In this document: positions 5,310 through 44,811 of the stretch, piece by piece
Layout of the letters: each line of letters begins with the position of its first letter
How positions within the stretch are numbered: position 1 is the first letter of the stretch
From: Alphaproteobacteria bacterium
GTDB taxonomy: Bacteria; Pseudomonadota; Alphaproteobacteria; GCA-2746255
NCBI GenBank assembly: GCA_965249135.1
Contig: OZ252220.1
Span: 1,920,001 to 1,984,000 of the forward strand
DNA: 64,000 nucleotides
Reading direction: 5' to 3'
The notes under the pieces: model-generated
What the model saw: only the letters and a program-made list of their open reading frames with translations
The model's database searches: none
Told to the model about the DNA's origin: nothing
Program-made: the position numbers and the translations under genes

Positions 5310-5632
5310 AGCGATTTCCTCTTCCTAACCTTCGGTGTGGAGTCGAGCGCCGGTTCCGGCTCGATCCGGCCACCCCCCCGTTCGATCATGGCAGCGAGAT
5401 AGCCGACAAGCTGGCGCTGTCCCTCGAGATGGCGAAGGCCGCATCCGATGCGTTCGGCCCAAGATGGCGGCCAAGGGTCAACGTCGTCAGATGCCGGAAG
5501 ACCGGTTTGGCCATCCGGCGATCGAAACGTGCGGGCGAAGGCCTCGGCCGTCTCAAGCAGGACATCCTTGCCGGTCTCGCTCGGGAGGCTGGCTTCATCG
5601 AACCAGTTCCAGCCGGCATCATCCACGGCCAT
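5291..5632 (-). CDS. Small phage protein between portal and scaffold (BPP-1 Bbp19-like), with two compensating frameshifts
   Basis: FARTFRSPDG and LRHLEGQRQLV are in one frame; the plausible middle VFRHLTTLTLGRHLGPNASDAA is in the neighbouring frame. Confidence 0.6.
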   Translation of the reverse strand: MAVDDAGWNWFDEASLPSETGKDVLLETAEAFARTFRSPDGQTGLPASDDVDPWPPSWAERIGCGLRHLEGQRQLVGYLAAMIERGGGRIEPEPALDSTPKVRKRKSLWTRIF

Positions 5633-7223
5633 CCTCCTCGGCGTTGGCGGTGTCTTCCGCAGCTTGTGCCGACTCGTTCCCGCCTAGGGCGGCGGCAAGG
5701 ACGGGGGCGGCCTCCGCGACAAGGGCCTCCTCGACGGCTTCTGCTACTTCGGCAAGGGCGATGGCCGGCGCTTCCCGGATCAACTGGTTGGGCACGCCGA
5801 GTTTCCGTCCCATCCACCGGACGGCGGCAGGCAAATCGATGGCGGCCATCCCCTCAGACCCAAAGGATGCTGCCGCATTCAGCCAGGTTAAGGTGAGTTG
5901 CACGTCCTTTTGAATCTGGCTTTGGGCGAGAGGCGAGCGGTATTGCAAGTCGACAAGGCGGCCATCGATAAAGATTTCCGGGATCTCGCCGCGCCGGCGA
6001 AGGATCTGTAACCCGCGGCTCACCAAAGGCGTCAACAATTCCGACTGCAGCCGGCCATAGGTTGCCCCAAGAATGCGTGTCATCTCGGCGGCACGTTCCA
6101 GCACTTCCGTCGCCGTCATGCGGGGGCCGTCAACCTGCCCCAACTGGTCGACGAGCAGCGCCTTTCGGATGCGACTCCGCAGGTCATCGAGGACGATCTG
6201 GGAGACGTCGAAACGCCCGGGCGCTTCGAGTGGCGTAAGCCCTGACGAACCGACGGCCTTCGGGATGATGGTTCCAGGCACGAGCTTGATGTTTGCCGGG
6301 TTAAGCACGCCGTCGTCATCCGCCTGCCAGATGCCGGTCACGGCGATCGTCGCGTTTTTGAGAACGAGCTCAACGACTTTATTCGCCGTCTTAATGTCGG
6401 GTAGCGCCTTCATTACCGGCGAACGACCGTAGATTTCACCCGGCGCCTTCAGCCAGCGGAAATTAAGGAAGGGCGACGAATCGAATTCACCGGTCGCTAA
6501 AACCCATGGTTCCGCCACCTCCCCTTTCTCGCTTTCAAGAAGCGCGTAATAGGCGTACCGGACCCCATCGGGAATGACCGCCTCGATAACCGTGAACTTC
6601 TTTGGGTTGTAGGCCTCGCCCTCCGGCTTTACCCATTCCGGCAAGGGCGCCTTCGGGAAACGCGTTTGGATGGCATCCGCATCGAGCGCGTTTCTGCGAA
6701 ACGTCGTATCGAGCCTGCCGGTGGGGCCTTCGTTGAGGACGGCTTGTGAAAGCGGGATCGCGGTGAACCGAAAGGCGCTCGCCGCCCCTGGCTCCGCTTC
6801 CTCGAAAAGTAGGCACGCCGTTCCCCCGGTAACGAGATCGAGGAAACCCTGATGCATCTCGATGGCGAAGTTCGACCGGTCGAGATGCGATTGCAGCGTT
6901 TTTGCCGCCTGGTCGAGCAGATCGGTAATTGCGGCTTCTTCCTCTTCGAATATCTCTGTTCCGGCGGCGAGACCGAACCAGCGCGCCCAAGGTGGCGTAA
7001 GCTGAGCCAGCAGGCTTGCCGCCAGTTGATCCACCGCATCCGGTGCCGTGCCGCCGAACAGCTTATCCGTCTTTTTCTCGCCGGGCCGGGGGGTGCGCGT
7101 GAATTCGTCCCGTTGCGGCAAGGCAAAATCGTAAGCTTCCTGCCAGTGGCTCTCCCAGAAACTTCGCCGGACGAGTGCCTGACGGTAGCGTGTGTAAACT
7201 GCCTCGGCGGTTAAGCTTGGCAT
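5619..7223 (-). CDS. Portal / head-to-tail connector (T7 gp8-like), 534 aa
   Basis: WESHWQEAYDFALP, LTPPWARWF, GEIYGRSPVMKALPDIKTAN, MTATEVLER motifs. Start at 7223 follows the upstream stop. Confidence 0.9.
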   Translation of the reverse strand: MPSLTAEAVYTRYRQALVRRSFWESHWQEAYDFALPQRDEFTRTPRPGEKKTDKLFGGTAPDAVDQLAASLLAQLTPPWARWFGLAAGTEIFEEEEAAITDLLDQAAKTLQSHLDRSNFAIEMHQGFLDLVTGGTACLLFEEAEPGAASAFRFTAIPLSQAVLNEGPTGRLDTTFRRNALDADAIQTRFPKAPLPEWVKPEGEAYNPKKFTVIEAVIPDGVRYAYYALLESEKGEVAEPWVLATGEFDSSPFLNFRWLKAPGEIYGRSPVMKALPDIKTANKVVELVLKNATIAVTGIWQADDDGVLNPANIKLVPGTIIPKAVGSSGLTPLEAPGRFDVSQIVLDDLRSRIRKALLVDQLGQVDGPRMTATEVLERAAEMTRILGATYGRLQSELLTPLVSRGLQILRRRGEIPEIFIDGRLVDLQYRSPLAQSQIQKDVQLTLTWLNAAASFGSEGMAAIDLPAAVRWMGRKLGVPNQLIREAPAIALAEVAEAVEEALVAEAAPVLAAALGGNESAQAAEDTANAEEDGRG

Positions 7224-7225
7224 CG

Positions 7226-7444
7226 CTATTCCCCCAAGAGCTGCTTGCGACGGGGAAACGCATCCTGCGGCAGCAGCACGCCACGGAAGGAGGTGGCGAT
7301 CGTACCCGCCCGTCCGCGCCGGCGAAGGCCTTGGCTGCTCGTTGCCTTTGCTGCTTGCGAGGCCTCTTTGGGCGGGCGCGCGGGTTGGGGTAAGGCCCGC
7401 GGCCACACGGGTAGCGGTCTTGGGGAGCCAAACAGACTAGACAT
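7226..7444 (-). CDS. Small pre-portal virion assembly protein (T7 gp7.3-like)
   Basis: MSSLFGSPRP...RRRGRAGTIATS..G...KQLLGE, typical of the small gene before podoviral portals. Confidence 0.6.
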   Translation of the reverse strand: MSSLFGSPRPLPVWPRALPQPARPPKEASQAAKATSSQGLRRRGRAGTIATSFRGVLLPQDAFPRRKQLLGE

Positions 7445-7455
7445 TACTTGACCCC

Positions 7456-7489
7456 CTTTCCCGAAAGCCGATCTTTCCCGAAAGCCGAT
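7456..7489. repeat. Perfect 17-bp tandem repeat CTTTCCCGAAAGCCGAT x2
   Basis: Copies at 7456-7472 and 7473-7489, each containing the inverted repeat CTTTC-CC-GAAAG. Confidence 0.85.
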
Positions 7490-7492
7490 GTG

Positions 7493-7529
7493 AAAAAGTG
7501 AGCACCTCCCGAGGGGAACCGGGAGGCGC
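7493..7529 (-). terminator. Terminator-like hairpin in the leader of the structural operon
   Basis: GCGCCUCCCG-N8-CGGGAGGUGC then UCACUUUUU. The G-U pair forms only on the minus strand. Confidence 0.6.
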
Positions 7530-7555
7530 CGAATAGATGGGTCGTGATGGTAGAA

Positions 7556-7587
7556 AGGAATATAGTCCTATATCCCCTCGCCGTCAA
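7556..7587 (-). promoter_or_regulatory. Sigma70 promoter of the structural operon with an operator over the -10
   Basis: TTGACG (7587-7582) - 17 nt - TATATT (7564-7559); palindrome AGGAATATAGTCCT at 7556-7569. Confidence 0.75.
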
Positions 7588-8048
7588 GAGGAAAGGAAGC
7601 CAAGGACGAGACTCCGTTTACCGAGTCGATCAAGGTGCCTGTAAAGTTGCCAGGGCGTAAAGACATTTGCCGCCCTTATGCCAAGGACACGTTTCACCGC
7701 CTCGACGCAGGTGAAGGGCCGAAGCGGAAGCGATGTCCAGGAAGATGGGAAGCAGTGTGTCGGCGGTGCCGGTAAGATTTCGGTAGTGACGACGCAGAGC
7801 CCATGTTGCCGGTACCAGTCGGCAAGGTCGAAATCGAGCGGCAGATCGAGTGCGACGATCTCCGTTCGATGAACAAGCGGGTCATAAACAAGCCAGCGCG
7901 AACCTTGAAGGATCACCAAGAAACAGTGGCGGTAGCCGCGTTTCAAAATACGCAGCCAAGGAAGGTCCGTCTGATTCGAAAAGACGACAAGGACAGGAAG
8001 CGCCTGCGCCTCCCATTCGTCTCGCAAGTTGCAAGCCTTTCGTCTCAT
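7584..8048 (-). CDS. Hypothetical protein, possible permuted papain-like (His...Cys) hydrolase
   Basis: ATGA overlap with the upstream gene; GYRHCF ... FTCVEAVKRVLG ... TPWQLY pattern. Confidence 0.55.
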   Translation of the reverse strand: MRRKACNLRDEWEAQALPVLVVFSNQTDLPWLRILKRGYRHCFLVILQGSRWLVYDPLVHRTEIVALDLPLDFDLADWYRQHGLCVVTTEILPAPPTHCFPSSWTSLPLRPFTCVEAVKRVLGIRAANVFTPWQLYRHLDRLGKRSLVLGFLSS

Positions 8049-8410
8049 TGCACGATCCCCTTGCCACGCAAAACACAGGCCAGCCGATGCAGCGCTTCCT
8101 CCCATAGAAGCGCGGCCGTCTCTTCCCGTTGGCGTTTTCCGTCGGGTGGCAGCAGTTTTTCGCCATATTCCGACAGCACCAGAAGGTGTTCGCGGCGTAA
8201 TTGCCGTTGCCGGTAAAGACGGTTGACAGCCGAAAGCACATCGTCGGGATCGCAAGGTCGCAACGCCTCGCCGCATCCGGCCGTGATCCGTGCGCCCGCT
8301 CGCCGGGCTTGAAAGCATTGAACGAACCAAAACCAAGCCTCCTCGGCCGTGGCAAACGGCACGCCTGCAAGGGGGAGGTAGGGTCTTGGGGCGTAGCGCT
8401 CGCGTCGCAT
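8045..8410 (-). CDS. Hypothetical 121-aa protein, candidate activator/antiterminator of the virion operon
   Basis: Protein-like ORF (PFATAEEAWFWF...RPCDPDDV...LWEEALHRL..VLRGKGIV); first gene behind the repressor-divergent promoter. Function is inference. Confidence 0.6.
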   Translation of the reverse strand: MRRERYAPRPYLPLAGVPFATAEEAWFWFVQCFQARRAGARITAGCGEALRPCDPDDVLSAVNRLYRQRQLRREHLLVLSEYGEKLLPPDGKRQREETAALLWEEALHRLACVLRGKGIVQ

Positions 8411-8475
8411 TCTGCTTCGATCCTCGTGACCGGAAATTCAGGCCTAGGGGGGAGTAAAAACGGCCTCTAAGAAAC

Positions 8476-8536
8476 AAGGAATTTATTCCTTTATCAAGAG
8501 ACATAGGATAATATTCCTGGTGTGATGGGGGGGCAA
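8476..8536 (-). promoter_or_regulatory. Divergent control region: two AGGA-N6-TCCT operators and a leftward sigma70 promoter
   Basis: AGGAATTTATTCCT 8477-8490 and AGGATAATATTCCT 8505-8518; TTGCCC (8536-8531) - 17 nt - TATTAT (8513-8508). Confidence 0.75.
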
Positions 8537-8554
8537 GTATAAGAAAATCTTCTT

Positions 8555-9187
8555 ATGTTGCGTCATGCCGACATATGGACCGCCATCGATAACTTCGCCA
8601 GAGTTCACGGGCTTTCGCCTTCCGGGCTCGCGCGCCGCGCCGGCCTCGATCCGACGACGTTTAATAAAAGTAAGCGGATCACTCGAGAGGGGAAGCCGCG
8701 GTGGCCCAGCACCGAAAGCATTTCGAAAATTCTGGATGCAACCGATAGCACCTTTGGCGAGTTTGCCATTCATCTTGGGAACGAAGCCGCGCAAGGCTTA
8801 GTACAACGGGTTCCGGTGATTGGCTTCGCCCAGGCGGGCAATGAGGGCTATTTTGACGATGCCGGCTACCCAACTGGAAGTGGTTGGGATGAAACAGTAT
8901 TTCCATATATTGGCGATGCGCATGCTTATGCGCTTGAGGTTAGCGGCGATAGCATGCAACCGATCTATCGTGACGGGGACATCATCCTCGTCTCGCCGGC
9001 AAAAAACATTCGTCGAGGCGATAGGGTCGTCGTAAAAACGAAAGAAGGCGAGGTGCTGGCGAAGGAATTAAAACGTCAAAGCAGCAAGCGCATCGAACTT
9101 CTCTCCCTAAACCGCACCTATGGGGATCGGATCCTGCCCGTCGAGAATGTTGAATGGATGGCGCGCGTCGTTTGGGTCAGTCAGTAA
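8555..9187 (+). CDS. XRE-HTH + S24 peptidase (LexA/CI-like) repressor, RogA-like
   Basis: HADIWTAIDNFARVHGLSPSGLARRAGLDPTTFNKSKR N-terminus; AQAG cleavage-type site; GDSM (Ser) and VLAKEL (Lys) dyad. Confidence 0.85.
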   Translation: MLRHADIWTAIDNFARVHGLSPSGLARRAGLDPTTFNKSKRITREGKPRWPSTESISKILDATDSTFGEFAIHLGNEAAQGLVQRVPVIGFAQAGNEGYFDDAGYPTGSGWDETVFPYIGDAHAYALEVSGDSMQPIYRDGDIILVSPAKNIRRGDRVVVKTKEGEVLAKELKRQSSKRIELLSLNRTYGDRILPVENVEWMARVVWVSQ

Positions 9188-9296: not shown

Positions 9297-10889
9297 CTAG
9301 CCGGCTTTGTCTTCCTGAAAAAGTTCTCCGGCCAGCGCTTGGCGGATGAGCCGAACCGTCTCCATCCGACCGTAAAGGGCGATGAAGGATCCCATCCGCG
9401 GTCCCCGTGACTGGCCAAGGAGGATTTCATAGAGGGCCTGGAACCAGGTCTTCAGATCCGGGAAGGGGTGGCGTTTTCCGACTTCGTAGACTTCCGTCTG
9501 GATTCCTTCCGCGTCCAGGTTGGCGGGAAGCAATTCCAGCACCTTCGCCAAGTCTTCAAGGGCAGCTTGCTCCATTTCATTTGGCGCCCGATAGTGCTTC
9601 GCCGGCTTGATGAAGTCCTGGTAATAGTTCACGGCGTGTTGCGCGAGCGCATCCAGGATAGGTTCCATCTTAGGGCTTGCCTTCGGTGCATATCGGGAGA
9701 GATAACCCCAAATCACGGAACTCTCTTCCGCATGGCAGGCGCTCGCGAGATTCAGCAGAATCGAGTAGGTGAGATGAAGCGCCTCCTTTGGCGGGCTGCC
9801 CTCGTGGATATGCCAGACCGGATTCGCCAAACGTTCGGCGGGTTCTTGCTCTTCATATTTGCTGAGGAAATTTAGATAATCGTCGACATTCCTGGGGATG
9901 ACGTCGAAATAAAGCCGCTTTGCCTTTTTCGGCGATTGATACATGAAAAGCTTAAGGCTTTCCGGCGGTGCGTAGCGAAGCCACGCCTCGACGCTCAGAC
10001 CATTTCCCCTTGACTTCGATATCTTCTCGCCGTTTTCGTCGAGGAAAAGTTCATAGGTAAAGCCCTCGGGAGGTGTGCCGCCAAGAATGCGACAAATCCG
10101 ATTGCCGAGTCGCACGGAATCGGTCAAGTCCTTCCCGGACATTTCATAATCGACGTCGAGGGCTGTCCATCGCATGGCCCAATCGACTCGCCACTGTAAT
10201 TTACAATGGCCCGCCGTAACGGGAAGTTCTGTCTTTGTACCGTCCTCATCTTCAAAGGTGATCGTGCCGGCAGTCACGTCCCATGCAATCACGGGCGTCT
10301 GAAGGACGCGTCCCGTTTTCGGCGAAATGGGCAGAAACGGGCTATAGGTTGCCCGGCGTTCTTCGCCAAGGATCGGCAATACCACCTCTAGAATTTCGTC
10401 ATAGTGCTCAAGCACCTTCCGGAGAACCGGATCGAATCGGCCACTTTTATAGCATTCCGTGGCACTCTGAAATTCGTAGTCGAAACCGAAGGAATCGAGA
10501 AAGGCATGTAGCCGAGCGTTGTTGTGGTGACCAAAGCTTTCATGCGTTTCAAAGGGATCCGGAATCGATGTCAGCGGCTTTCCGAGATGCTCCGCTAGCA
10601 TTGCCTGGTTGGGGACGTTATCGGGCACTTTACGAAGCCCGTCCATGTCATCGGAAAAGGCAAAGAGACGGGTGGGAACGTCCGCCAGTGTCGAAAAGGC
10701 ATGCCGGACAAGCGTCGTGCGGACCACTTCAGCAAAGGTTCCGATGTGGGGAAGGCCCGACGGGCCATAGCCGGTCTCGAAAAGAACATAGCCCTTCTCG
10801 GGACATTTGCCGTCGATGCGCTCGAGTACGCGCCGCGCTTCCTGAAACGGCCAAGCTTTACACGCCGCCGCAGCCTCGCGATCGGACAT
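9297..10889 (-). CDS. lysS: Lysine--tRNA ligase, class I
   Basis: ETGYGPSGLPHIGT (HIGH-like) and KISKSRGN motifs. Confidence 0.95.
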   Translation of the reverse strand: MSDREAAAACKAWPFQEARRVLERIDGKCPEKGYVLFETGYGPSGLPHIGTFAEVVRTTLVRHAFSTLADVPTRLFAFSDDMDGLRKVPDNVPNQAMLAEHLGKPLTSIPDPFETHESFGHHNNARLHAFLDSFGFDYEFQSATECYKSGRFDPVLRKVLEHYDEILEVVLPILGEERRATYSPFLPISPKTGRVLQTPVIAWDVTAGTITFEDEDGTKTELPVTAGHCKLQWRVDWAMRWTALDVDYEMSGKDLTDSVRLGNRICRILGGTPPEGFTYELFLDENGEKISKSRGNGLSVEAWLRYAPPESLKLFMYQSPKKAKRLYFDVIPRNVDDYLNFLSKYEEQEPAERLANPVWHIHEGSPPKEALHLTYSILLNLASACHAEESSVIWGYLSRYAPKASPKMEPILDALAQHAVNYYQDFIKPAKHYRAPNEMEQAALEDLAKVLELLPANLDAEGIQTEVYEVGKRHPFPDLKTWFQALYEILLGQSRGPRMGSFIALYGRMETVRLIRQALAGELFQEDKAG

Positions 10890-43569: not shown

Positions 43570-44811
43570 ATGCCGTTAGTGACACCCTTCGCAGCACTCC
43601 GCCCGGTTTCGGAGCATGCCGCCGATGTGCTGGCGCCACCTTACGATGTGCTCACCAGTGAGGAAGCCCGTCACCGTGCCGAAGGACGGCCGTGGAGCTT
43701 TCTGCATATCTCGAAGCCCGAGATCGACCTGCCGCCGGAGACGGATGTCCATGCGCCGGAAGTCTATGGGAAGGCGGCGGCAAATCTGAAAGCCATGCTG
43801 GCAGCAGGCATTCTTCATCGCGATCCGACGCCTTGTTATTACGTCTACCGGCTTCGAATGGGCGGGCATACCCAGACCGGGATCGTCCTTGCCGCCTCCG
43901 TTACGGCCTATGACGAGGGCCGTATCCGCCGTCACGAATTGACGCGCCCCGAAAAAGAAAACGACCGCGTTCGTCAGATCGAGGCTCTGGACGCCGAGAC
44001 CGGGCCAGTGTTGCTTGCCCATCGGCGTGCGCCGGCGCTTCCACCCTTGGTTTCGGAAGTCACCGACAGAAAGCCGGCCTACGATCTCACGGCCGACGAT
44101 GGGGTTCTGCATACACTGTGGCCGATCGAGGATCCGGCCGCGATCGACAGGATTAGCGAAGCCCTCGAGGCGATGCCGACGCTTTACATCGCTGACGGCC
44201 ATCACCGTTCGGCTGCAGCCTCGCGGGTTGCGGCGGCAAAACGTGCGGCCAACCCGCACCATACTGGTAACGAGCCATATAACTATTTTCTTGCCGTCGC
44301 CTTTCCGTCCGATTCGCTACACGTGCTCGACTACAACCGCGTCATTCGGGATTTGAAGGGGCTCACGAAGCAAGCGTTTCTGGAGCGCATTCAGGAAGCT
44401 TTCACGATTACCGAATGCAAAGAGGCGGTGAAACCCGCCCATCCGGGCGAGTTTGGCATGTATCTCGAGGAAAATTGGTATCGGCTTGCGATACACCCGA
44501 CACGTATGCCAGAGGCGGATCCCGTCGCCAGGCTAGATGTGAGCCTCCTTGCCGATCATCTGATCGCTCCCATCCTTGGCATTGAGGATCTGCGTCGCGA
44601 CGACCGGATCGATTTCGTCGGTGGCGTTCATGGATTGGACGGGCTTGCGCGCCGGGTCGATTCGGGTGAAATGGCCATTGCTTTTTCGCTTTACCCGACA
44701 CGGCTCGACGATCTGATGGCCGTTGCCGATGTCGGCGAAATCATGCCGCCGAAATCCACTTGGTTTGAACCGAAACTTGCCGATGGGCTCGTCTCGCTCA
44801 TGCTATCGTGA
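43570..44811 (+). CDS. DUF1015 family protein
   Basis: PPYDV, IRRHELTR, IADGHHR, MPPKSTWFEPKL. Confidence 0.88.
   Translation: MPLVTPFAALRPVSEHAADVLAPPYDVLTSEEARHRAEGRPWSFLHISKPEIDLPPETDVHAPEVYGKAAANLKAMLAAGILHRDPTPCYYVYRLRMGGHTQTGIVLAASVTAYDEGRIRRHELTRPEKENDRVRQIEALDAETGPVLLAHRRAPALPPLVSEVTDRKPAYDLTADDGVLHTLWPIEDPAAIDRISEALEAMPTLYIADGHHRSAAASRVAAAKRAANPHHTGNEPYNYFLAVAFPSDSLHVLDYNRVIRDLKGLTKQAFLERIQEAFTITECKEAVKPAHPGEFGMYLEENWYRLAIHPTRMPEADPVARLDVSLLADHLIAPILGIEDLRRDDRIDFVGGVHGLDGLARRVDSGEMAIAFSLYPTRLDDLMAVADVGEIMPPKSTWFEPKLADGLVSLMLS

Follow-up and report, generated by a model that had tools for sequence, protein, structure and literature searches.

Genes and palindromes at the locus

The stretch of DNA analysed here (the window: 64,000 nucleotides, positions 1,920,001 to 1,984,000 of contig OZ252220.1, assembly GCA_965249135.1, from an alphaproteobacterium of the GTDB lineage GCA-2746255) carries near its left end a cluster of genes for a T7-like particle and, divergent from it, a gene for a repressor of 210 amino acids with a helix-turn-helix (HTH) and a Peptidase_S24 domain. 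Between the two lies an operon of two genes on the minus strand, here called A and B, in which the start codon of gene B overlaps the stop codon of gene A as ATGA. To the left of this operon follow gene C and the genes for the portal, the scaffold, the capsid, tail tube A, the nozzle and the internal virion proteins (Table 1). The original prediction, which was made from the letters of the window, had singled out three AGGA-N6-TCCT palindromes in this region as operators of the adjacent repressor. Their sequences and coordinates were found exactly as predicted, and the palindromes, designated O1, O2 and O3, are very probably docking sites of the neighbouring repressor, as judged from their sequence, position and conservation.

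AGGA-N6-TCCT matches the window three times in total, while 0.63 matches are expected (standard deviation 0.76) and three were reached in 2 of 100 shuffles. All three matches fall within 963 bp, in the two intergenic regions on either side of the A-B operon. O2 is an exact GGAA-N4-TTCC, O1 and O3 each deviate from this shorter pattern by one base, and all three fit the extended AGGA-N6-TCCT. A spacer with at least five A/T bases is found in 7 of the 19 genomic AGGA-N6-TCCT sites, and all three window sites are A/T-rich. What is unusual is the clustering together with the A/T-rich spacers and the conservation, rather than the abundance of the bare core.

The original prediction had named conservation in orthologous loci as a check, and all three palindromes are indeed kept at the same positions in the four orthologous loci of the same genus (4/4). 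Among the 12 sites of these congeners, seven are exact and five carry one mismatch; the half-sites are constant, while the spacers vary.

Table 1. Features of the locus and unlinked sites (window positions unless marked as genome positions; leftward features are on the minus strand)
Feature	Position	Strand	Remarks
T7-type portal gene (Head-tail_con)	5619..7223	-	PF12236, E 2.8e-138; scaffold, capsid, tail tube and internal virion genes follow leftward
Gene C, 72 amino acids	7226..7444	-	First gene of the virion operon; conserved C-terminus; tblastn matches in 7 other loci
17-bp tandem duplication, CTTTCCCGAAAGCCGAT x2 (plus-strand letters)	7456..7489	-	Perfect repeat between terminator and gene C
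Terminator-like hairpin	7492..7530	-	12-bp stem with 8 G-C pairs, then a U-run; ~20-60 nt past P_late
Putative operator O1, AGGAATATAGTCCT	7556..7569		Over the late-promoter -10; at most one mismatch in 4/4 same-genus loci
Predicted late promoter P_late	7559..7587	-	-35 TTGACG 7587..7582, 17-bp spacer, -10 TATATT 7564..7559
Gene B, 154 amino acids	7584..8048	-	Predicted permuted papain/NlpC-P60-like cysteine hydrolase (fold model and invariant residues)
Gene A, 121 amino acids	8045..8410	-	Four-helix, sigma-region-4-like C-terminal half; candidate activator or antiterminator
Putative operator O2, AGGAATTTATTCCT	8477..8490		Starts 1-2 bp past the conserved -35 of the leftward promoter
-35-like hexamer of the predicted A-B leftward promoter	8491..8496	-	TTGATA here, TTGACA in 4 congeners
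Putative operator O3, AGGATAATATTCCT	8505..8518		50 bp ahead of the repressor ATG; 19 bp upstream of the conserved TATAAG
Second leftward promoter-like site, TTGCCC-17-TATTAT	8508..8536	-	This genome only; not found in L002-L005
Candidate repressor -10 TATAAG (8538-8543) and degenerate fourth palindrome AAGAAAATCTTCTT (8541-8554)	8538..8554	+	Position weight matrix score 15.1
RogA-orthologous HTH and S24 repressor, 210 amino acids	8555..9187	+	Ala94-Gly95, Ser133 and Lys170 intact
Class I lysyl-tRNA synthetase gene (lysS)	9297..10889	-	Convergent with the repressor gene, as in Caulobacter
Unlinked site 43743	43743 (genome)		TTGACG-17-TACTAT with box over -10; precedes a Peptidase_M23 gene; box exact in 4/5 congeners, fifth locus at a contig end
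Unlinked site 2052693	2052693 (genome)		TTGACA-18-TAAAAT (11/12) with box over -10; precedes a Laminin_G-like operon; in 5/5 congeners with the same single mismatch
Unlinked site 922490	922490-922503 (genome; L023:2490-2503)		O3 sequence on the other strand; in the congeners exact in 1/5, with one mismatch in 1, not found in 3

The repressor and Caulobacter RogA

The S24 domain of the repressor (E 1.2e-25) spans residues 87-206, and a weak match to HTH_26, an HTH domain of the Cro/C1 type, spans residues 11-72. Its best match in Caulobacter vibrioides DSM 9893 is an open reading frame (ORF) of 213 amino acids (E 9e-65; next match 8.9e-6), to which it is 52% identical over 211 columns, i.e., the full length, in BLASTP (E 1e-75). 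The reverse search with this ORF returned the window repressor as the best match (2.3e-65; next 9e-7). The HTH stretches of the two proteins are very similar, and in both genomes the class I lysS gene is convergent with the repressor gene. Reciprocal best matches and gene position both identify the repressor as the orthologue of Caulobacter RogA (CCNA_00080), the ORF having been called RogA from its length and its missing catalytic residues and not via a locus tag.

Gozzi et al. (2022, PMC9632790) describe RogA as LexA-like and 213 amino acids long; it has an HTH, and its S24-like domain is devoid of the key residues for cleavage. The purified protein bound three overlapping fragments of ~40 bp from the core promoter of gafYZ, and this promoter carries two GGAA-N4-TTCC inverted repeats, so that the RogA repeat named in the original prediction is confirmed by the source. 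According to the text of the S4 figure, the gafYZ promoter contains AGGAATATCTTCCT, an exact AGGA-N6-TCCT, and we found the same sequence at the gafYZ promoter of the type strain DSM 9893. An exact 40-nt search with the published gafYZ promoter gave no match, as there is a one-base difference in the type strain in the stretch between the boxes, while a gapped pattern returned two loci including gafYZ of DSM 9893.

The Ser-Lys dyad and the Ala-Gly site that had been noticed in the repressor are present as Ala94-Gly95, Ser133 (in a GDSM motif) and Lys170 (in an AKEL motif), and the two motifs align with Ser119 and Lys156 of Escherichia coli LexA. In the Caulobacter ORF, the serine and the lysine are replaced by aspartate and arginine, respectively. 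At the sequence level the repressor thus has the Ala-Gly and Ser/Lys S24 features of self-cleaving repressors of the lambda CI type, and self-cleavage is plausible, unlike in RogA.

It is extremely unlikely that the palindromes are instead SOS boxes of the host LexA and the cluster an ordinary member of the SOS regulon. The adjacent protein is LexA-like in its architecture and the true LexA is encoded elsewhere in the genome, but the former scores only 35.4 bits against a lexA equivalog cut-off of 110.95, while the latter reaches 169 bits; the repressor was therefore rejected as LexA. The alphaproteobacterial LexA box is a GTTC-N7-GTTC direct repeat, which is unlike AGGA-N6-TCCT.

RogA-like genes and boxes in other alphaproteobacteria

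In a class sample of 401 genomes, in which a gene was counted as RogA-like at E <= 1e-20 and as adjacent within 3.5 kb, 110 genomes (a count that includes G045) have a RogA-like gene and 72 have gene B. Both occur in 55 genomes, in 50 of them within 3.5 kb (linked), and the order repressor, A, B and portal recurs in loci of many other families. In the remaining 55 genomes with a RogA-like gene no gene B was found; C. vibrioides is of that kind, neither gene B nor a T7-type portal having been found in its genome. In many families lysS is a neighbour of the RogA-like gene, whether or not the particle cluster is there: the two genes are at most 3 kb apart in 12 of 20 orphan and 5 of 20 new linked loci, in 4/4 loci of the genus and in Caulobacter (L045-L084, L019).

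Of the 20 orphan and 20 linked RogA-like members sampled, 18 and 19, respectively, retain the Ser/Lys dyad, which is the majority state; these counts rule out that loss of the dyad tracks loss of the cluster. In a quick maximum-likelihood tree of 52 repressors, with rows chosen for long contigs and high scores, linked and orphan members are interspersed, the best tree requires nine changes and the well-supported branches force at least two. This tree, which is unrooted, with neither an outgroup nor a reconciliation with a species tree, is compatible with a rogA that stayed in place while the cluster next to it was lost repeatedly, but it does not give the direction of change.

To describe the boxes outside the genus, we used 26 distant linked loci, which comprise 20 of the 50 adjacent cases (chosen for long contigs and high scores) together with L007-L011 and L013; L006 and L012 were left out, as no repressor match was found there. 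The two intergenic regions of these loci, 8,971 nt in sum, contain 29 box-like sites (3.23 per kb), while 14 were counted in the remaining 143,615 nt (0.097 per kb), which is a 33-fold intergenic enrichment.

We consider it quite improbable that the palindromes have no operator function and are chance-symmetric, A/T-rich promoter cores which were conserved as promoters. All three indeed overlap or abut promoter-like elements, their core is unenriched genome-wide, and distant loci often retain the TTCCT half only. However, the conserved part consists of the G/C half-sites AGGA and TCCT while the A/T spacer varies, O2 lies in a promoter spacer and not over a -10 hexamer, and the box matches a different promoter in Caulobacter in addition to being enriched between the genes of the distant loci.

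Predicted promoters and terminator, and the probable role of each site

A promoter scan returned two leftward promoter-like sites where 0.4 were expected. The site at O1 (7587..7559) has 10/12 matches and the site at O3 (8536..8508) has 9/12, and in this genome both -10 hexamers end 3 bp inside their palindromes. The identical register of two promoters in the original prediction therefore holds for this genome, while the second promoter is not conserved in the genus. In contrast, a TTGACG-17-TAnAnT promoter with the box over its -10 precedes the virion operon in 5/5 genomes of the genus. The -35 of this predicted late promoter, P_late, overlaps the stop codon of gene B, and GTCAAG recurs at this end of the gene in distant loci. 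The box at distant late promoters tends to lie on the -35 side (GTCA-AGGA-N6-TCCT), and in 6 of the 26 loci it is found 15-23 bp past the end of gene B, not over the -10. An Rfam scan of positions 7150-8650 gave one sub-threshold match (15.6 bits; gathering score 58.7).

The terminator-like hairpin behind P_late has a folding energy of -22.7 kcal/mol (z -4.33), which was equalled by none of 200 shuffles, and an equivalent G+C-rich hairpin of 11-13 bp with a U-run stands behind the late promoter in 5/5 genomes of the genus. Gene C starts only ~45 nt past the hairpin, and this interval includes the 17-bp tandem duplication, the unit of which is present as a single copy in the congener L002. Nothing promoter-like was found between the terminator and the virion genes. 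With the terminator directly behind P_late and so short a distance to gene C, the virion operon would have to be read through the terminator, and release of the repressor may thus not suffice on its own.

Between O2 and O3 stands a GTCAAG, which corresponds to a -35 when read on the minus strand; it is conserved within the genus and recurs in many distant loci. On account of this conserved leftward -35, O2 is likelier to be the operator of A-B and O3 that of the repressor gene itself: O2 would lie inside the -35/-10 spacer, a classic repressing position for the A-B promoter. O3 starts 50 or 51 bp ahead of the repressor ATG across the genus, 19-20 bp upstream of TATAAG, and 11 of the 26 distant linked loci have a box with at most one mismatch at precisely -50, while one more has it at -51. 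Because of this fixed position in the genus and in distant loci, O3 is probably an autoregulatory site of the repressor, in agreement with the autoregulation that had been considered probable. The fourth palindrome overlaps TATAAG and abuts the repressor ATG; many family members, whether linked or orphan, are preceded by a TATAAGAAGATGTTCCCATG-like sequence, and the fourth palindrome is perhaps autoregulatory as well.

The rogA gene of C. vibrioides DSM 9893 is likewise preceded by a one-mismatch box, AGGAAAGTAAACCT, at a distance of 51-64 nt from its start codon (L019:2190-2203). It hints at autoregulation in Caulobacter, too.

The original prediction had held that the repressor silences both operons directly. 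For the virion operon, this is supported at O1, where promoter and box occur together in 5/5 genomes of the genus and two unlinked promoters have the same build. For the two-gene operon, the proposed route via the promoter at O3 is the less likely one, as this promoter is confined to one of five genomes, and O2 is the likelier operator.

Unlinked sites in the genome

We scanned the genome with a position matrix built from the 15 sites of the genus. The matrix ranks genome positions 922490, 43743 and 2052693 directly after or among the three window sites. The composite of a box (at most one mismatch), 12-15 nt and GTCAA occurs three times in the genome, namely at O1, 43743 and 2052693, and not at all in a reversed-genome control. 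The genome-wide scan that had been proposed for unlinked promoters with the box thus yielded two that are conserved in the genus, one in front of an M23 peptidase gene and one in front of a Laminin_G-like operon (Table 1). Past the site at 2052693 follow a hairpin with a U-run (-19.9 kcal/mol, z only -1.29), a gene for 111 amino acids, a gene for a Laminin_G_3 protein and a gene for 89 amino acids.

The box at 43743 also spans the -10 of a rightward promoter-like site, TTGTCA-17-TAGTAT (L024:2225-2253, genome ~43725-43753), which points at a gene that, judging from its sequence, may encode a tRNA-dihydrouridine synthase. The site at 922490 is a possible, unproven member of the regulon. It lies ~55 nt upstream of an ORF of 46 amino acids, which is truncated here and much longer in the congener G004, and ~115 nt ahead of a fragmented indolepyruvate-oxidoreductase-like gene, which is spread over several frames in this genome. 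A further match at 184176 was discarded, since it lies inside overlapping long reading frames and looks like a chance match in a coding region.

Genes A, B and C

No family was found for A, B or C in Pfam, NCBIfam and PHROGs. Identification of A and B as GafY and GafZ was rejected at the sequence level (BLASTP E 3.0 and 1.6, respectively). In tblastn searches of this genome no convincing homologue of GafY or GafZ was found; the GafY match (E 1.3e-5) covers 69 residues at an unrelated place, and the best GafZ match has an E of 0.021.

Homologues of gene A were found in 13 of the 61 genomes of a sample of relatives, the genome itself included. The gene is present in four of the five other species of the genus, and the genome of the fifth is 88% complete. 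In the VIA comparison (48,161 chains), the best match of the AlphaFold model of A (pLDDT 81.8) is the Q21 antiterminator as seen in a complex with RNA polymerase (6jnx_P; Z 6.2, root-mean-square deviation 3.5, 88 aligned residues), followed by AlpA (7xyb_G; Z 5.6) and chains of sigma region 4, all with middling Z scores, and a VIA Z below 8 may reflect just a common helical arrangement. A weak lead in Atlas (0.80) points to a cluster carrying Phage_antitermQ. Foldseek gave no match in the Protein Data Bank (PDB) at E <= 0.001 for either A or B, and a profile search of PDB sequences returned no match for A and one, at chance level, for B. These fold matches and the succession of promoter, terminator and late operon make A a tentative candidate for a read-through factor, with a chance that we put somewhat below even.

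The model of gene B (pLDDT 83.5) is closest to TseH (Z 7.6), YiiX (Z 6.3) and the cysteine peptidase 3kw0 (Z 5.6). The protein has 582 relatives at E <= 0.001, and its invariant residues are His41, Cys42 and Cys114. In Atlas, a weak lead points to NlpC/P60 hydrolases of the YiiX kind. From these matches B would be a cysteine hydrolase with a permuted papain fold, predicted to be an enzyme rather than a regulator, and its part may be in lysis, in processing or in removal of the repressor. The designation of A-B as a two-gene regulatory operon would accordingly fit A, as a candidate regulator, but probably not B.

In locus L006, the region of gene C between gene B and the portal gene is swollen by long G-rich near-repeats (GGGGGCTGGGTCAC-like units and GGC/GGA runs). 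With this expansion, the length of gene C varies greatly between families.

Since gene A lies between the sites and has a sigma-region-4-like, Q-like predicted fold, the boxes might be bound by its product, or else by a paralogous HTH and S24 protein of 237 amino acids (genome ~1,134,4xx-1,135,1xx), the third S24 protein in the genome, while the adjacent repressor acts elsewhere. The conserved GTCAAG that accompanies the boxes would fit such another binder. We nevertheless regard this as improbable: the same box lies within the fragments that purified Caulobacter RogA bound (PMC9632790), the Caulobacter genome has no gene B or T7-type portal that we could find (gene A was not searched there), the box precedes orphan RogA genes with neither A nor B nearby, and the paralogue is only 31% identical over 79 residues.

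The particle gene cluster

The virion genes were assigned to PF12236, PF05396 and PF19821 in Pfam and to phrog_394 and phrog_376 in PHROGs. Beyond the left edge of the window, the cluster continues with a tail fibre gene, a small gene, the large terminase gene and a holin gene, after which the host genes pyrD and groEL follow. The holin gene is the last of the cluster (L022:14031-14582, genome 1,916,031-1,916,582) and encodes a GTA_holin_3TM protein (Pfam E 4.2e-12); this holin family is named for the release of gene transfer agents (GTAs). From the holin to the repressor gene, the element spans approximately genome positions 1,916,031-1,929,187 (~13 kb), between pyrD/groEL and lysS. Library scans found no integrase or replication genes among the genes of the cluster, which are confined to head, tail, packaging and lysis functions and to A, B and C. 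In the absence of integrase and replication genes, the cluster looks GTA-like and not like a prophage; it appears to be T7-like and chromosomally inherited.

The nozzle gene (phrog_376; 752-2657) is split into the overlapping frames 2136-2657 and 752-2617 on the minus strand. Contigs of two other public runs (X5 and X6) have two extra bases behind position 2282, while the near-identical run X1 agrees with the window. Either the strain truly has a frameshift here, or the split goes back to an error in the source data.

A model for control of the cluster

In the model that we favour, at a probability of roughly 80%, the palindromes are the operators of the adjacent RogA-orthologous repressor, which controls the particle cluster. 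From the motif, its positions and conservation, the orthology and the catalytic residues, all of which were computed here, we infer binding, repression, cleavage and antitermination in this organism. The repressor would recognise AGGAA-N4-TTCCT, as RogA does, and, encoded divergently from the ~13-kb cluster, would hold it off at several promoters. Repression of A-B would be exerted by O2, in the spacer of the conserved leftward promoter, and autoregulation by O3, perhaps together with the weak fourth palindrome, on the repressor's own promoter. O1, which overlies the -10 of P_late where gene B ends, would repress the virion operon directly, and the same box over the -10 of the two unlinked promoters would place the M23 peptidase gene and the Laminin_G-like accessory operon under the same control. 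Since the Ala-Gly site, the serine and the lysine are intact, induction would most likely occur by self-cleavage, stimulated by RecA as in LexA and lambda CI. Full late expression would probably also need read-through by early products, among which A is the candidate, because a terminator follows P_late and nothing promoter-like precedes the virion genes.

Several observations weigh against this model. Across the genome, the bare AGGA-N6-TCCT core shows no enrichment: 19 sites were counted in 2,118,282 bp, against 30 for a reversed-pattern control. The leftward promoter over O3 occurs in only one of the five genomes of the genus, and the conserved leftward -35 has a poor -10 here (TTTCTT at 17 bp), so that the start site of A-B is uncertain. 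Boxes of distant families often have a weak half-site on the promoter-distal side (ATGA or AYGY), and part of the conserved signal could consequently be promoter and not operator. A crude scan outside the genus found a terminator behind the late promoter in 9 of 30 loci, as compared with 8 of 30 antisense and 8 of 29 coding controls; there the late-promoter terminator is indistinguishable from the controls, and the claim is made for the genus only. The box in Caulobacter was assigned from fragments of ~40 bp, and the accessible text of PMC9632790 contains no mutagenesis at the base level. Finally, the nozzle gene is frameshifted here, and the element is therefore maybe decaying or impaired in this strain.

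Comparison with known systems

The closest known system is RogA/gafYZ of Caulobacter crescentus (PMC9632790; Tran and Le, 2024, PMC11150451). The repressors are orthologous and agree in length class, architecture and the neighbouring lysS; the box is the same and is located in the core promoter of a small operon, of two genes, upstream of a particle cluster, and in both cases a terminator must be passed for the cluster to be expressed. However, the target genes A and B have no similarity to GafY and GafZ, and the particle genes are of the T7/podovirus type here and of the RcGTA/HK97 siphovirus type there. The repressor described here adjoins its cluster and keeps the Ser/Lys dyad that Caulobacter RogA lost, and its box also covers the late promoter directly, as well as two promoters elsewhere in the genome.

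Lambda offers two further parallels. As with CI at OR/PRM-PR, the repressor has HTH and S24 domains, the Ala-Gly site and the Ser/Lys dyad, and several operators lie between divergent promoters, one of which is its own. As with Q at PR'-tR', a terminator stands right behind the late promoter and a candidate read-through factor is encoded just upstream. In contrast to lambda, the cluster has no integrase, excision or replication modules and is chromosomally inherited, the box covers the late promoter itself, and the resemblance of A to Q is one of predicted fold, at a Z of 6.2 only.

With the RcGTA-type agents, whose unlinked accessory loci are controlled by GafA or GafYZ, the element shares a ~13-kb cluster of head, tail and lysis genes that lacks replication genes, a GTA_holin_3TM holin, and unlinked lysis and tail-accessory genes that bear the cis-regulatory signature of the cluster. 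It differs in its structural lineage (T7-like portal, scaffold, capsid, tail tube A and B and internal virion proteins), and in that control would be exerted by direct repression and not only via an activator.

A possible, if rather doubtful, history that would connect these systems is that RogA originated not with an RcGTA-type agent but as a CI-like, self-cleaving repressor of a podovirus-derived, GTA-like cluster beside lysS, that the cluster was later lost repeatedly, and that the repressor was rewired onto gafYZ in Caulobacter. The cluster would have resided beside lysS in an early alphaproteobacterium, and its many losses would have left orphan RogA genes next to lysS. One such orphan, in Caulobacter, would have lost the catalytic dyad and come to act on gafYZ of an unrelated GTA. 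The genus studied here would keep the ancestral circuit, in which the repressor acts on a Q-like A and a hydrolase B, these lead to an antiterminated late operon, and unlinked lysis and tail genes with the same box belong to the circuit. A literature search, which did not cover all journals, found nothing that links RogA to a T7-like cluster; the accessible part of PMC10386132 has nothing on this element, and no passage on RogA binding or cleavage was found in that of PMC13236601.

RogA has hitherto stood for one organism and one target logic, namely repression of gafYZ, the activator of an RcGTA-type agent. Here, the same repressor family and the same box are found beside a structurally unrelated, T7-like cluster, which adjoins about half (50/110) of the RogA-like genes in the sample of 401 genomes. 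If the favoured model and the proposed history are true, RogA would gain an origin and a much wider regulon logic, and the intact self-cleavage motifs, which Caulobacter RogA lacks, would predict a link to DNA damage. The conserved products of genes A and B, which belong to no known family, would then probably act as the switch of a second class of GTA-like elements that is widespread among the alphaproteobacteria.

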